Assembly (NCBI RefSeq): GCF_002854065.1
Contig: NZ_CP024153.1
DNA: 64,000 nucleotides
DNA from: Escherichia coli
Lineage (GTDB): Bacteria > Pseudomonadota > Gammaproteobacteria > Enterobacterales > Enterobacteriaceae
Reading direction: 5' to 3' (one strand)
Shown here piece after piece: positions 4,175-29,123 of this stretch. A program made the position numbers and the translations under genes. Within the stretch, counting starts at the first letter, position 1; each line of letters starts with the position of its first letter. The notes under the pieces are model-generated. The model was not told the origin of the DNA, did no database searches, and was given only the letters and a program-made list of their open reading frames with translations.

Positions 4175-4600
4175 GGTAATGGTGCCAACTTACTGATTTA
4201 GTGTATGATGGTGTTTTTGAGGTGCTCCCGTGGCTTCCATCTCCATCAGTTGTCCCTCCTGCTCAGCTACTGAAGGCGTGGTGCGTAACGGTAAAAGTAC
4301 TGCCGGACATCAGCGCTATCTCTGCTCTCACTGCCGTAAAACATGGCAGCTACAGTTCACTTACACCGCCTCTCAGGCCGCAGTCGGTAAACTCACGCAT
4401 ACAACCGGGCAGTGACGTCATTGTTTGCGCGGAAATGGACGAACAGTGGGGTTACGTCGGCGCTAAATCACGCCAGCGCTGGTTGTTTTACGCGTATGAC
4501 AGGATACGGAGGACGGTTGTGGCACACGTCTTCGGTGAACGTACTATGGCCACGCTGGAGCATCTTCTGAGCCTGCCGTCGGACTTTCAGGGCGCGTGGT
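4175..4600 (+). mobile_element. IS1 remnant (left IR, truncated insA, part of insB; 3' end degenerate)
   Basis: IR ggtaatggtgccaacttactgat at 4175; InsA frame diverges after FTYT; InsB frame diverges after ...GERTMATL. Confidence 0.7.
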
Positions 4601-5323
4601 TCCTTTTAAACACCAGCTCTGTATCTCTTTTAAAGATCCTTTAATAAATTCTGTAAACCCATAATCTGTTCATCGCCTGCATTGTGGACCGGCTCGGGAG
4701 AATGCCCGCCCTTGCAGCTACCAGACGGTCGCACCGGTTCGGCAACACCAGAGAGAGCTCCCATCGCTTCGCGACGGGCCCCGACCGGAGAATTAAATTA
4801 GTTACAGCATTCATAATGATATTCATCATAAAACCGGCGCCGGTTTGCCGGCCCGGTGCCCCTCCCCACCACTGAAAAGCGCCGCCGCCCCCGCCCAAAG
4901 GGCGGGAACAACATCGCTTTTAATTATGAATGTTGTAACTACATCTTCATCGCTGTCAGTCTTCTCGCTGGAAGTATTGAGTACACGCTCGTAAGCGGCC
5001 CTGATGGCCCGCTAACGCGGAGATACGCCCCGACTTCGGGTAAACCCTCGTCGGGACCACTCCGACCGCGCACAAAAGCTCTGTCATGGCTGAAAGCAGG
5101 TATGGTCTGGCAGGGCAAGGGATGGGTAAGGTGAAATCTGTCAATCCGTACCGGCTTACGCCGGGCTTCGGCGGTTTTACTCCTGTATCATATGAAACAA
5201 CAGAGTGCCGCCTTCCATGCCGCTGATGCGGCATATCCTGGTAACGATATCTGAATTGTTATACATGTGTATATACGTGGTAATGACAAAAATAGGACAA
5301 GTTAAAAATTTACAGGCGATGCA

Positions 5324-22645: not shown

Positions 22646-23617
22646 ATGCGCAAGCCTCATTCGCCGTTTTTGGCAAGCATCTATGAGCAGATGTTGATGC
22701 TGCGTTACGCGATGGCAACCGTTGAAGCCTATCTGCACTGGATCAAGGCATTTATCCGTTTTTCCCGGATGAAGCATCCGGTCGAGCTGGGTGAGGCGGA
22801 GGTTCAGCAATTTTTGTCCTATCTGGTCACCGAGCGCCATGTGGCTGTCAAGACTCAGGCCCAGGCGTTGAATGCGCTGGTCTTCTTGTATCGCACTGTC
22901 TTGTTACGGCCTCTGCAGCTCGAGATGAAATTTACGCGCAGCCAGCGCCCTCCCAAACTGCCAACTGTTTTGACGCAAAGTGAAGTCCGAGCCTTGTTGC
23001 TGGCTATGCCAGTTCATCTTCGTCTCTTGGCGCAACTGATGTATGGCAGCGGACTCAGGCTGATGGAGGTGATGCGCCTGTGCGTGCAGGATATCGACTT
23101 CAACTACCTCTGCCTGATGGTCTGGAATGGCAAAGGGGGCAAGCACAGGCGTGTGACTCTGGCCTCGGAACTCATTCCGGCCCTGCGGGAGCAAATTGCC
23201 TACGTCCAGCGCTTTTATATGACGGACTGCTTAAACGACGCGTATGCCGGGGTGGCCTTGCCGACGGCATTGGCGCGCAAGTATCCGGCTGCCAGCAAAG
23301 AGCTGGGTTGGCACTACCTGTTTCCGGCATCCCATCTGAGTCGCGATCCTGTCGATGGGGCCTTGCGTCGACATCATCTGGATCCAACTACCCTGCAAAA
23401 AGCGGTTCGAGCCACGGCGCGTCAGCTACAGCTGGGAAAACCGGTCACCTGTCATACCTTGCGCCATTCCTTTGCCACCCATTTGCTGGCGCGGGGGGCG
23501 GATATTCGAACCGTGCAGGAGCAACTGGGCCATTCTGATGTTCGAACCACACAAATTTATACCCATGTGCTGCAAAACGGCGCCAATGGGGTACGTAGCC
23601 CTTTGTCTGATCTGTAA
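22646..23617 (+). CDS. Integron-integrase-like tyrosine recombinase, not class 1
   Basis: 323 aa; YLHWIKAFIRF, integron-specific insert (ALARKYP...W.YLFP...DP...RRHH), HTLRHSFATHLL, DIRTVQEQLGHSDVRTTQIYTHV; RBS ggaggtgactc before ATG; clearly divergent from IntI1 copies at 42087 and 44137. Confidence 0.75.
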   Translation: MRKPHSPFLASIYEQMLMLRYAMATVEAYLHWIKAFIRFSRMKHPVELGEAEVQQFLSYLVTERHVAVKTQAQALNALVFLYRTVLLRPLQLEMKFTRSQRPPKLPTVLTQSEVRALLLAMPVHLRLLAQLMYGSGLRLMEVMRLCVQDIDFNYLCLMVWNGKGGKHRRVTLASELIPALREQIAYVQRFYMTDCLNDAYAGVALPTALARKYPAASKELGWHYLFPASHLSRDPVDGALRRHHLDPTTLQKAVRATARQLQLGKPVTCHTLRHSFATHLLARGADIRTVQEQLGHSDVRTTQIYTHVLQNGANGVRSPLSDL

Positions 23618-23845: not shown

Positions 23846-25041
<1,196 letters not shown>

Positions 25042-26076
25042 CTAAATCGTCGTGCCACTTACGCCAGTCTTTATTGAGCTTATCTTTTTTACCGCCTTCT
25101 TCGGCTTTTACAGGTGCCTGGTCGACGTTCATCACCACTTCAACGGCATCAAAGCCGAGTTTGTCACCCAACAAGTAGTACATCTGCACGCAGGCATCGC
25201 GGTCGTACACCACTACCATGCCTTTCATTGTCGCCCTGGAGGTGCGAGAGCAGGCTATACAGCAGGCGATCGAGGCCGCGCTAGCGCACCAGCCAGTTGA
25301 TCCCCCCCGCCCCAAGAGCTGGCGCGTGCTGCGCCCGCTCCGGCCACGCCTGAACCGCCCCGCCTTCGGCGGAGCCGTTAGGGCGCGGCACCAAATGGGC
25401 TGAAATGCGGCGTTCGGGTATCAAAACGAACGAACCAGGAGAGGCGGATTTTAGCCACTAAAATCCGCCAGAAAACGTCGCGAACTTTCAGGGCTTTTGG
25501 GGGGCATTTGGCAGGGTTTCGCATGCGAAAATCGACGTTTCGTGGTGATCTGGGGAGGAAGAGGGTTTTGCGCATGCGCAAAAGTGCCTATTTAACATAT
25601 TGCCTGTATGACGCAGTAGGAATATGCAAAAAATGCATATACGAAACCGCATGAGGATTTTTATGGTGATGTTGTCTAAATTGGACGCTGATGCCGCTAG
25701 CAATATACGAGATCAGCATGACTACGAACGAGCGCTGGCGTTAATTGATGAACTGTTCGACTGGTATCGCTCGTTGGGAGGATCGTTCGCCGGAATTCGA
25801 CGAATTCAACAAAATGGTGCGAAACATAGAGACCCAGGAGAAGTCACCATGAAAATTTTGGGTGGGTTCTGCATCTAGGGTTGTAGATGGTGCCATTGTG
25901 TTGTTCCGCGAGCCCCTTGTTCCCAGAACTCAAAAAATGGGAGCGAGCGAATATCAGAGACTCGGGCGCAGCGGATGTCACCCTCTATCACAATTGGTAA
26001 TCCAAAAAGTGTTTTTCCTCGCCAAACTATTCAATCCACTCCTTCGTTTCGCCCTGCTATGGCAATCCCTATGGGT

Positions 26077-26274
26077 TCAAATGACGATCCCGTTCTCGAT
26101 CTGTCCGACCAGGTCCTCGACCTCCGTCACCGTAACATCAGGATCTGCCGGTCGTCTATTGCCCAACGAGCGCGCGGGTAGATCTAGCCAGAGCCTCGCT
26201 TTTTGGGCATTCCCATCAAACAGCCGTGTCGCAAAAAATAGTTTTTGAAAATAGGTTTTTGAGTTTCCCACCAT
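26077..26274 (-). CDS. Small ORF with DUF2384-like (Xre/MbcA/ParS antitoxin-type) C-terminus
   Basis: ...ARLWLDLPARSLGNRRPADPDVTVTEVEDLVGQIENGIVI; AGGAG RBS 5 nt before the ATG at 26274. Confidence 0.3.
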   Translation of the reverse strand: MVGNSKTYFQKLFFATRLFDGNAQKARLWLDLPARSLGNRRPADPDVTVTEVEDLVGQIENGIVI

Positions 26275-26335
26275 CAACTCCTGTAAAATGACGTGATACT
26301 GGGTCGTAAATGATGATAGCTCTAACGGAGGTCGT

Positions 26336-26743
26336 ATGTCCCAGCTCAAGGACCGTCGCACCTCGATGCGGGTAACAGCCGAAAACATTGTTCTGAACAG
26401 TGGTGAATGGTTCACGCAGAATGAACTGAACAGCATCGCCACCTGTCAGCAATTCGAACTCGATGAGTGGGAGCTGTCAGGGAAAATATTTTCCATCCAT
26501 CATGACGGCACAGATTACTATCCGACATATGCGCTGGATTCGAAAGATTATCGACCGCTAGATGCAATGGCCAAAGTTATTTCCATTTTTTCTGGACACA
26601 AAAACGGTTGGGGGATGGCATTTTGGTTCATGTCGGCTAATGGTTGTCTGGGTGCCGTAACACCGAAATCTATTATTGCTACTGAACCAGAACGAGTGTT
26701 GGCCGCAGCCCGAGATGAAATTGAAGGCGTGGCCCATGGCTAA
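26336..26743 (+). CDS. Hypothetical protein, 135 aa, divergent from the 26077-26274 ORF
   Basis: GGAGG RBS; C-terminus ...AFWFMSANGCLGAVTPKSIIATEPERVLAAARDEIEGV also loosely DUF2384-like. Confidence 0.4.
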   Translation: MSQLKDRRTSMRVTAENIVLNSGEWFTQNELNSIATCQQFELDEWELSGKIFSIHHDGTDYYPTYALDSKDYRPLDAMAKVISIFSGHKNGWGMAFWFMSANGCLGAVTPKSIIATEPERVLAAARDEIEGVAHG

Positions 26744-26942
26744 CTGTGGCTGTAGGCTTTCGCATAACCAACAGTTGTTGGCACCAGTGTTCACTGCAAA
26801 CATTCGCTCGGTCCGCCCAGGTCTTCTGGTGGACAGCTCTATTTGGTAACAGGCTTTTGACCCAACAGTCCGGACACGTTTTCCAAACTCATCATCCAGT
26901 CGGCAATATCTAGACTCCTCAATTGCAGGATGTTTTCAATTT

Positions 26943-26980
26943 GGGGAGCCCGCAGAATTCGGAAAAAATCGTACGCTAAG
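26943..26980 (+). repeat. Tn1721 38-bp terminal IR
   Basis: ggggagcccgcagaattcggaaaaaatcgtacgctaag; contains the tnpA stop codon. Confidence 0.9.
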
Positions 26981-28790
26981 GTTTTCCGGGCATCCGTAAG
27001 GGCCGAAACTTCCCGTCTTCCAGTCTGCGGCTCTGCCGCCAGACGTAATCGCCGGTTAGGTTGATGTGCTCCCAGCCCAGCGGCGACAGGAATTGCAGCA
27101 GCTCGCCGTCCACCGGCTTGCCGGCCTCGACCAACCCCTGGGTGGCGCGTTCCAGGTACACCGTGTTCCACAGCACGATAGCCGCCGTCACCAGGTTGAG
27201 GCCGCTGGCCCGGTAGCGCTGCTGCTCGAAGCTCCGATCCCTGATTTCCCCAAGGCGGTTGAAGAACACCGCCCTGGCCAGCGAGTTGCGCGCCTCACCT
27301 TTGTTCAGGCCGGCATGCACGCGGCGGCGCAGTTCAACACTTTGCAGCCAGTCCAGGATGAACAGCGTGCGCTCGATCCGGCCCAGCTCGCGCAGGGCCA
27401 CGGCCAGTCCGTTCTGGCGCGGGTAGCTGCCGAGCTTGCGCAGCATCAGCGAGGCGGTGACGGTGCCCTGCTTGATCGAGCTGGCCAGGCGCAGGATGTC
27501 GTCCCAGTGGGCACGCACGTGCTTGATGTTCAGGGTGCCGCCGATCAGCGGGCGCAACGTCGGGTAGGCTTGCACGCCCTGCGGCACGTACAGCTTGGTT
27601 TCGCCGAGGTCGCGGATGCGCGGCGCGAAGCGGAAGCCTAGCAGGTGCATCAGGGCAAAGACGTGATCGGTGAAGCCGGCCGTGTCGGTGTAGTGCTCCT
27701 CGATCCGCAGGTCGGACTCGTGGTACAGCAGGCCGTCGAGCACATAGGTGGAATCGCGGACGCCGACATTCACCACGCGGGTGCTGAACGGCGCGTACTG
27801 GTCGGAGATATGGGTATAGAACAGCCGTCCCGGCTCGCTACCGTACTTCGGGTTGACGTGCCCGGTGCTCTCGCCCCGGCCACCCGCGCGGAAGCGCTGG
27901 CCATCGGAGGATGAGGTCGTGCCGTCGCCCCAGTGGGCGGCAAAGGCGTGGCGATACTGGTGGTTGACCAGCTCGGCCAAGGCCGCCGAATAGGTTTCGT
28001 CGCGGATGTGCCAGGCTTGCAGCCAGGACAGCTTGGCGTAGGTCAGGCCGGGGCTCGACTCGGCCATCTTGGTCAGCCCGAGGTTGATCGCATCACCGAG
28101 GATTGCGGACAGCAGCAACGTCCTGTCTTTGGCCTCGGCCCCGTCCTTCAAGTGGGTGAAGTGGCGGCTGAAGCCCGTCCAGTCGTCCACGTCCATCAGC
28201 AGTTCGGTGATCTTGATGCGCGGCAGTAACTGGCTGGTTTGGTCGATCAGCGCCTGCGCCCGATCCGGCACCGCCGCATCCAGCGGGGTGATTTTCAGCC
28301 CTGACTCGGTGAGGATGGCATCGGGCAGCTCGTTGTCCTTGGCCAGGCGGGTGACGGTGGCCAACTGCTCGTCCAGCAGCTGCAAACGCTCTTCCAGGTA
28401 CTGGTCGCTGTTCGGGTTGATCGCCAGGGGCAGGGCCTGCTCGCGCTTGAGTGCGGCGAACTTCTCGGCCGGCAGCAGGTAGTCGTCGAAGTCGCGGAAC
28501 TGCCGCGAGCCCTTGACCCAGATGTCGCCGGAGCGCAGGGCGTTCTTCAGCTCGGACAGGGCGCAGATTTCGTAGAATTTCCGGTCGAGGCCTTCCGGGG
28601 TGATCACCAGCGGCTTCCAGCGCGGCTTGATGAAGGCCGTGGGTGCATCGGCCGGCACCTTGCGCAGGTTGTCGGCGTTCATCTCACGCAGGGTCTGCAC
28701 GGCTGCCAGCACGCCTTGCGCGGCCGGCCCGTGCTGTTCCCCAACTTTTCGCTCGGCGAAGTGTATGAACATGCGCCGCCGGCGACGAAT
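26976..28790 (-). pseudogene. tnpA: Tn1721 tnpA 3' portion (the duplicated transposase end of the tet module)
   Basis: Tn3-family TnpA C-terminal about 590 aa ending ...RMPGKP at the IR; 5' extent uncertain. Confidence 0.8.
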
Positions 28791-29123
28791 CGCCAAATCT
28801 CACCGTATCTCCCGAGCGGACGATTTCGCACCGGTCTGCCCGTCGAAGGGCTTGCGATCGAACGGGGCGACCTTTTCTATGCATGTCCGCGAGCCAGCGT
28901 CTTTTATGGCACGGCGCTCGACGCCGACCTTCGGACGCGCGGCGTAAGCACGCTTGTCATGGCCGGGATAAGCACCACCGGCGTTGTTCTTTCAAGCGTC
29001 GCCTGGGCTAGTGATGCGGACTACGACGTGCGTTTGGTCCAGGACTGCTGCTACGACCCGGATCGGGATGCCCACGAAGCTCTGTTGCGTTCCGGGTTCG
29101 GCGGACGTGTACAGGTCGTGTAA
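28716..29123 (+). CDS. Isochorismatase-like hydrolase fragment (tentative)
   Basis: ...[35 protein letters not shown]... resembles cysteine-hydrolase fold; overlaps upstream end of tnpA remnant. Confidence 0.3.

Follow-up and report, generated by a model that had tools for sequence, protein, structure and literature searches.

The closest described relatives of the genes considered here belong to the RES-Xre toxin-antitoxin (TA) systems (COG5654-COG5642), which include MbcT/MbcA, ParT/ParS, the RES/Xre pair of P. putida and NatT/NatR. In this group, MbcA cannot block MbcT without its last ten residues (PMC6436930), and the C-terminal carboxylate of ParS is placed inside ParT (PMC7758455). What appears to be the same toxin-binding domain, catalogued as DUF2384 (PF09722), can be recognised with varying clarity in the C-terminal halves of the products of two small divergent genes, here called A and B, on a resistance plasmid of Escherichia coli. 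Both genes lie in a 64,000-nucleotide stretch of contig NZ_CP024153.1 (assembly GCF_002854065.1), referred to below as the window, whose numbering is used throughout. They are probably orphan antitoxin-type genes that came along as passengers in a piece of an older plasmid.

Resemblance to the RES-Xre systems extends from the domain to gene order, in that genes of the B family stand where an antitoxin gene would, ahead of a RES gene and overlapping it, and their products are conserved at the extreme C-terminus. The A/B locus differs in having no RES gene, either in place or in the ancestral context preserved on a metagenomic contig (L106), and in its N-termini: A lacks an N-terminal domain, and B has a predicted winged helix in place of the PF20432 helix-turn-helix (HTH). 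A second point of comparison is Rv2175c of M. tuberculosis (PDB 2kfs), which binds DNA through a winged helix (PMC6151718) and also has a C-terminal 'effector' domain. In the structural model, B shares this two-domain fold, with an N-terminal winged HTH followed by a helical C-terminal domain, but the two proteins are only 8-9% identical, with no homology detectable by sequence, and Rv2175c is a chromosomal kinase substrate of an actinobacterium. The type VII MntA/HepT (MNT-HEPN) systems are relevant to a third gene, C, which lies downstream of A. Homologues of C occupy the HepT slot, overlapping by 4 bp the end of an MntA-like nucleotidyltransferase gene, but C (76 aa) has no HEPN/DUF86 match and no Rx4-6H motif on sequence inspection. 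Orphan antitoxins and anti-addiction modules, lastly, share with this locus the presence on a plasmid of intact antitoxin-type genes without a toxin in cis, and here C has decayed and A survives; the difference is that no target in trans was found among E. coli genomes or plasmid RES matches.

Domain composition of A and B

The open reading frames (ORFs) of A and B and their C-termini are as the earlier note reported, and so are their good ribosome-binding sites (RBSs): AGGAG for A (plus-strand CTCCT, 26278-26282), 3 nt before the ATG at 26274, and GGAGG for B (26327-26331), 4 nt before its ATG. The DUF2384-type C-termini proposed in that note are supported for both proteins, A by hidden Markov model (HMM) and B by fold and family-level HMM matches. 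The accompanying label 'Xre' fails for both N-termini, from which the Xre-like HTH (PF20432) is absent.

A matches PF09722 with an E value of 3.3e-5 and 24.2 bits against a gathering score of 24.5, so that the DUF2384 domain appears to be present in substance and falls formally just under the threshold. The relatives of A carry PF09722 as their precomputed Pfam label. Matches to TIGR02293 (E=3.5e-7, positions 81-132 of 133) and NF049845 (E=1.9e-6, positions 60-111 of 112) score far under the whole-protein cut-offs because they are confined to the last ~50 profile positions. The Prokaryotic Genome Annotation Pipeline (PGAP) gives A the same 65-aa form, under the name antitoxin Xre/MbcA/ParS toxin-binding domain-containing protein (WP_032482496.1), and this short form is stable, with relatives of 63-68 aa. 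Judged from these matches, A is a minimal toxin-binding domain without a DNA-binding half. A longer form of 121 aa starting at a GTG (26077-26442), which would overlap B, was rejected: the sequence ahead of the ATG shows no conservation in L003, a locus that carries relatives of both genes (A' and B'), and the 65-aa form was therefore taken as the gene. A metagenome scan with A returned two loci only, both with an A identical to that of the window; one of them is L106.

Comparison with L003 additionally provides a measure of selection. A and A' are 94% identical, with 16 synonymous and 4 non-synonymous changes and a ratio of non-synonymous to synonymous substitution rates (dN/dS) of 0.063; B and B' are 70% identical, with 56 synonymous and 44 non-synonymous changes and a dN/dS of 0.119. 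Both comparisons display third-position bias, and A and B are real genes under purifying selection.

B is labelled 'hypothetical protein' in RefSeq and scores under all curated HMM cut-offs. Its homologues are 84, 70, 61, 49 and 40-42% identical to it, and profile searches recover a family of 2645 clusters at E<=1e-3 and 1390 at E<=1e-10, in which a long form (~224 aa) and a short form (~130-150 aa) can be distinguished. An AlphaFold (AF2) model built on an 87-sequence alignment, with a mean predicted local distance difference test (pLDDT) score of 92.6, shows a winged helix-turn-helix between an N-terminal helix and a C-terminal domain of four helices, an architecture that combines an Rv2175c-like winged helix with an MbcA/ParS-like domain; this model replaced a poor first model from 9 sequences (pLDDT 60). 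According to this model, the N-terminus of B is a winged helix of the excisionase/MerR type, not an Xre HTH. Although B has no direct match to PF09722, 22 of the 87 family members reach it at E<=0.01, and hhalign places the A-type profile on B residues 73-125 (E=5.6e-5). Predicted fold, family-level HMM matches and gene context together point to a divergent toxin-binding domain of the MbcA/ParS type in the C-terminal half of B. A C-terminal His-Gly (HG) pair is invariant or nearly so across the family, in RES-linked and RES-less members alike, and this conservation fits the active-site mechanism of MbcA and ParS.

Two further observations concern the B family. The long, RES-linked form (L005 5001-5290 and others) carries an N-terminal extension of ~90 residues without a family match. 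A 796-bp metagenome contig (L086), compared with window positions 26200-26950, is identical to the window to about 26498 and of the L003 type through the rest of B and downstream, and is thus a natural recombinant inside gene B.

RES linkage of the B family and its absence at this locus

The connection of B to RES toxins emerges at the family level. In a sample of 80 loci, one genome per species, a RES homologue overlaps or directly follows the B homologue in 46, usually with an overlap of 8 bp. Neighbours were scored as homologues of a Pfam-verified RES protein; Pfam RES was confirmed in three of the 46, two of them at 62-63 bits, and on many plasmids PGAP names the neighbour 'RES family NAD+ phosphorylase'. 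Homologous loci with RES partners therefore do exist for B, and on sequence grounds the B family is an unannotated antitoxin-type partner of RES toxins in which the winged helix replaces the Xre HTH.

None of this linkage is found at the locus itself. A RES-family HMM run against the six-frame translation of the whole window found no match (best E=3.7), in agreement with the earlier note, which had seen no RES-like ORF or other toxin partner. L106 is 99.9% identical to window positions 25553-26943 and is without the transposon that now borders B's side of the segment; beyond 26942 it continues into a convergent Abi-like gene, several small ORFs, a ribbon-helix-helix-like gene and a ParA ATPase gene, with no RES gene after B or within 3 kb beyond the Abi-like gene. 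More distant relatives agree. In L003, a terminator-like hairpin and T-run follow directly on B', and in contig ERZ22666135, which carries the 61% relative (B''), a convergent gene overlaps the end of B''; neither has a RES gene there. In a neighbour-joining tree, the B proteins of the window and L003 form a RES-less branch of their own, and there are several further RES-less branches. A scan of the neighbours of 34 RES-less B homologues for an alternative conserved toxin found none, the contexts being heterogeneous. At the DNA level, no module of long B plus RES was detectable in 5426 E. coli genomes, and the plasmid RES matches of the B subfamily come mostly from other genera, with no top match from Escherichia or Salmonella.

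The possibility that a short ORF across the stop codon of B (MANCGCRL..., 26736-26849) encodes a truncated RES N-terminus was set aside: the ORF has no family match and no RES-HMM match, and the region is intergenic in the ancestral L106, ahead of the convergent gene. In Pseudomonas (L004 3473-6426; L073 930-4399; L058), RES-less B homologues close a conserved block made up of a VspR-like gene (~198 aa), a ResIII/Helicase_C gene (~465 aa) and a small gene, which in L073 encodes an Xre-HTH/PF09722 protein.

Gene C and the competing readings

The gene downstream of A, decayed in the window, is intact in L003, where it encodes 80 aa (4453-4695, minus strand) and lies 47 bp downstream of A'. Intact 76-aa homologues (P0167, P0168) share 67-72% identity with C. 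Elsewhere (L089-L095), C homologues are second to a gene for a 96-aa nucleotidyltransferase (PF01909), with a 4-bp overlap; the best NCBIfam match of the latter is the MntA antitoxin family NF047752 (E=3.3e-8, 33 bits against a cut-off of 60). A phage contig has a C-like gene directly behind one for an Xre HTH protein. In L092-L095, C has suffered a 2-bp frameshift and the replacement of its 3' end, and the nucleotidyltransferase gene is intact. Since C is found behind three different antitoxin-type genes and has twice decayed with its partner surviving, it behaves like a toxin, and may be one that A neutralises.

Three smaller observations belong with C and its neighbours. A 254-aa gene without a family match follows the MntA-like/C pair in L089 (725-1489) and L090 (896-1660) and could be a third component of that module. 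The C-family motif LPFFEFW also turned up in a viral scan (L097-L102), where, in L099 3338-4378 and other viral contigs, the motif and ~57 residues align at 33% identity inside phage tyrosine integrases; the likeness is probably coincidental and was treated as such. In ERZ22666135 (2049 bp), the relative of A (A'') is followed by a 53-aa ORF.

The history most consistent with these data begins in the maintenance or defence region of some older plasmid, which would have held addiction and abortive-infection genes. In RES-linked relatives, the B-family protein presumably neutralises its toxin by placing the C-terminus in the NAD+ pocket, by analogy with MbcA, ParS and Xre. The branch to which the window B belongs would be a short form that had lost its RES gene, or never had one, before it reached the plasmid. 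The winged helix of B would bind DNA and the C-terminal domain would still end in the conserved His-Gly; deprived of a toxin, B would most likely do no more than bind DNA and autoregulate the divergent promoters of A and B, much as Rv2175c binds DNA. A candidate operator lies between the two genes and includes the direct repeat AAATGACGTGATA (26286-26298) and AAATGATGATAG (26308-26319), in a region largely conserved in L003, with a weak minus-strand promoter-like site at 26342-26313. A, for its part, would have been the first gene of a two-gene operon, orphaned once C, the probable toxin, decayed. Both genes may well be neutral in present-day E. coli and Salmonella.

Several observations weigh against this account. 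The operator and promoters are not above chance, as two promoter-like sites were found where 2.0 are expected. A falls 0.3 bits short of the Pfam gathering score. B itself matches nothing in Pfam, NCBIfam, PHROGs or PADLOC, so that its toxin-binding assignment draws on family-level matches, fold and gene context, and profiles of the B family run against PDB sequences returned noise only, with no solved structure matched. C has no match in any library, Pfam, NCBIfam and PADLOC among them, and no recognisable toxin fold; its role as a toxin is argued solely from gene order and repeated decay, and the adjacency of A and C is seen with sequence in one lineage (L003) besides the pseudogene of the window. 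Lastly, the conserved HG in RES-less members and the low dN/dS suggest that the toxin-binding surface is still in use, which sits uneasily with a protein that is a regulator only.

The conserved HG, together with the PF09722 neighbours of RES-less B loci described below, leaves room for two other readings, neutralisation of foreign RES toxins in trans and a regulatory A-B pair. The broadest alternative, which is doubtful although not negligible, holds that DUF2384 domains are not restricted to RES partners: A would be the antitoxin of the small C family (76-80 aa), other members of which pair with MntA-like and Xre-type antitoxin genes, and a RES-less B beside a second DUF2384 protein would form a toxin-free module disarming RES toxins of the host or of rivals. 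Unlikely to a slightly greater degree is the narrower proposal of anti-addiction or immunity, by which A and B would neutralise RES-type toxins from the recipient chromosome, from competing plasmids or from incoming polymorphic toxins, and so aid establishment or the displacement of rivals. In its favour, purifying selection acts on A and B, and on the C-terminal HG of B in RES-less lineages. RES-less short forms arise repeatedly in the tree and occur in mobile or defence-island settings, beside the coupling protein of a type IV secretion system in L003 and beside AbiH, Shedu, PIN and integrase genes elsewhere. Five RES-less B loci (L061, L073, L079, L084, L085) and the window lineage have a further PF09722 protein within 4 kb, against none of the 46 RES-linked loci, a difference with a hand-calculated one-sided Fisher probability of about 0.005 that ignores shared ancestry. 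RES domains occur in secreted polymorphic toxins too (PMC3482391), and phages offer a precedent in orphan antitoxin-like counter-defence genes (PMC11825919). What this proposal lacks is a target, given the absence of any cognate-type RES module from the E. coli genomes at the DNA level and of Escherichia and Salmonella from the top plasmid RES matches; antitoxins, moreover, are usually specific to their own toxin.

Quite improbable is a third arrangement, in which A and B act together as regulator and co-regulator (or decoy) and need no enzyme toxin. Three lineages have retained A and B as a divergent pair, namely the window, L003 (94% and 70% identity for A and B) and ERZ22666135 (71% and 61%), and comparable neighbours occur elsewhere: L061 has an 82-aa DUF2384-only protein 1 kb upstream of a RES-less B homologue, and in L073 the B homologue, also RES-less, directly follows, on the same strand, a canonical Xre-HTH/PF09722 gene of 147 aa. 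The three lineages are closely related, however, so the synteny may be inherited, not selected; ERZ22666135 has a 247-aa gene between A'' and B'', A has a downstream gene of its own in C, and most RES-less B homologues have no such neighbour. The earlier note had suggested instead that a RES partner was lost through the elements it named as bounds, IS5 and the Tn1721 inverted repeat. The right-hand bound is as described, a Tn3-family repeat at 26943, and the left is more complex, with filler sequence from 25034 to about 25590. Ordinary RES-Xre pairs stripped of their RES genes by these insertions would account for the flanking mobile elements, for the gene truncated at the Tn3-family end and for the common RES linkage of the B family, but such a loss is very unlikely. 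L106 reads from the segment into the convergent Abi_2-like gene, so that the Tn3-family insertion cut this gene and removed no RES gene, with none within the next 3 kb; the 70% and 61% relatives of B have no RES gene after B, and no six-frame RES remnant was found. The supposed RES partner of A fares no better, as the gene after A is C, which lies inside the segment and is not RES. Least credible of all is the idea that A and B are chance ORFs or decaying pseudogenes without a product. The neighbours D, C and the Abi-like gene are indeed all broken and B lacks an HMM match, but dN/dS values of 0.06 and 0.12 with third-position bias contradict this idea, as do the strong RBSs, a B family of >1000 clusters and the confident fold of B.

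On the preferred reading of A and B as passive orphans, the locus is most likely a neutral hitchhiker on its resistance plasmid and needs no special attention in annotation; there is nothing unusual in a resistance plasmid carrying orphan antitoxins. The novelty lies in a winged-helix variant of RES antitoxins that forms a large family without a name, in a DUF2384 protein of minimal size whose apparent partner is a non-RES gene, and in a candidate family of small toxins. As the winged helix replaces the Xre HTH, TA-finding pipelines that rely on PF09722 and PF20432 will miss RES systems whose partners, in >1000 clusters, are called 'hypothetical protein', or will label the toxins orphans. RES-less copies of B are common and keep the toxin-plugging C-terminus, which makes the role of solo antitoxins directly testable. 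C, small and unannotated, recurs in the toxin slot behind three antitoxin-type genes and is a candidate for a new toxin family.

The island and its surroundings

Features of the A/B island and its borders, in window coordinates
Feature	Position	Strand	Description
IS5-like element	ends near 25033		left of the island
Filler sequence	25034 to about 25590		unrelated to the ancestral plasmid sequence
Homology to L003/L106	starts about 25553-25590		ancestral plasmid sequence
Palindrome TATGCA-N5-TGCATA	25623..25639		just upstream of the higA-like remnant; candidate operator; identical in L003
Remnant D	25663..25852	+	N-terminal half of a HigA-like antitoxin, frameshifted by a deletion, without the HTH half
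Gene C pseudogene	25875..26033	-	start codons lost (6-bp deletion) and in-frame 78-bp deletion (26 codons)
Gene A	26077..26274	-	65-aa protein, stand-alone DUF2384 (Xre/MbcA/ParS C-terminal toxin-binding) domain by near-threshold match
A/B divergent control region	26275..26335		61 bp with both RBSs and an imperfect direct repeat; candidate operator
Gene B	26336..26743	+	135-aa protein, predicted winged helix and DUF2384-like domain; short RES-less member of a family usually preceding RES toxin genes
End of Abi_2-like gene	26839..26942	-	what the transposon left of a convergent 222-aa gene (its last 34 codons)
Tn3-family (TnAs1/Tn1721-type) terminal inverted repeat	26943..26980		right edge of the passenger fragment; GGGGAGCCCGCAGAATTCGG..., read from the sequence

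The island holds two intact antitoxin-type genes and three broken ones (the higA-like half, gene C and the 3' end of the Abi-like gene). It measures 1.9 kb, of which ~1.4 kb is recognisably ancestral, and is best understood as a passenger fragment caught between an IS5-like element and a Tn3-family transposon within the sul3 resistance region. The annotation assigns the tnpA adjoining the inverted repeat to the TnAs1 family, and homology to L106 stops exactly at 26943, the break point against the transposon. Among PLSDB plasmids, about 58 carry a copy at least 99% identical (E. coli 34, Salmonella 23, Shigella 2, Enterobacter 2); 30 of the 5426 complete E. coli genomes contain the island. The context is always alike, a resistance region of sul3, insertion sequences and Tn3-family elements. 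A PLSDB search for a plasmid of the L003 type found none, and Rfam gave no RNA family between 24900 and 27100.

Remnant D is a gene fragment with the HTH half of HigA missing and the frame broken. Reconstructed from the window and L003 frames, it matches residues 18-72 of E. coli HigA (5ycl/5ifg) with E=6.3e-6; the lesions differ between the window and L003. At the other end of the island, the Abi_2-like gene is complete in L106 (3768-4436), where its 222-aa product contains the motif LRNRIAHH, around which it matches PF07751 (Abi_2) with 25.1 bits against a cut-off of 25.6 (E=2.4e-5).

On the left, the non-coding stretch 25229-25617 matches, at 93% identity, intergenic DNA without annotation on a plasmid of Aeromonas allosaccharophila (L087 5001-5373) and contains two palindromes, TTTCGCATGCGAAA and TTTGCGCATGCGCAAA, and one hairpin, GGCGGATTTTAGCCACTAAAATCCGCC. 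Its final ~28 bp overlap the start of the L003 homology, which suggests a shared recombination or junction site. The segment 25497-25590 (GGGGGCATTTGG...) had been considered as a Tn3-family end, with A and B as transposon passengers; this was dropped, the stretch being common to the Aeromonas plasmid intergenic region. On the minus strand, an open frame at 25034-25315 (…GMVVVYDRDACVQMYYLLGDKLGFDAVEVVMNVDQAPVKAEEGGKKDKLNKDWRKW…) runs into the end of IS5 and resembles part of a larger protein that this element interrupted.

The transposase of the IS5-like element (23995-24894) consists of two ORFs in the same frame (131 and 163 aa) split by an in-frame stop at 24388-24390, and its start appears to correspond to a position deep within the IS5 reference protein; this copy is probably inactive. 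Further to the left, PGAP gives the name 'integron integrase' to a gene of 323 aa (22646-23617, WP_032482493.1), which is transcribed towards the island and has an IS256-family transposase fragment beside sul3 on one side and the IS5-like element on the other. On the right, the ORF of the TnAs1-type transposase (26976-28796) encodes only 606 aa, against an equivalent of 2967 bp in NZ_CP055071.1 (L002 7577-10543), and the gene appears to be truncated or interrupted in the window.

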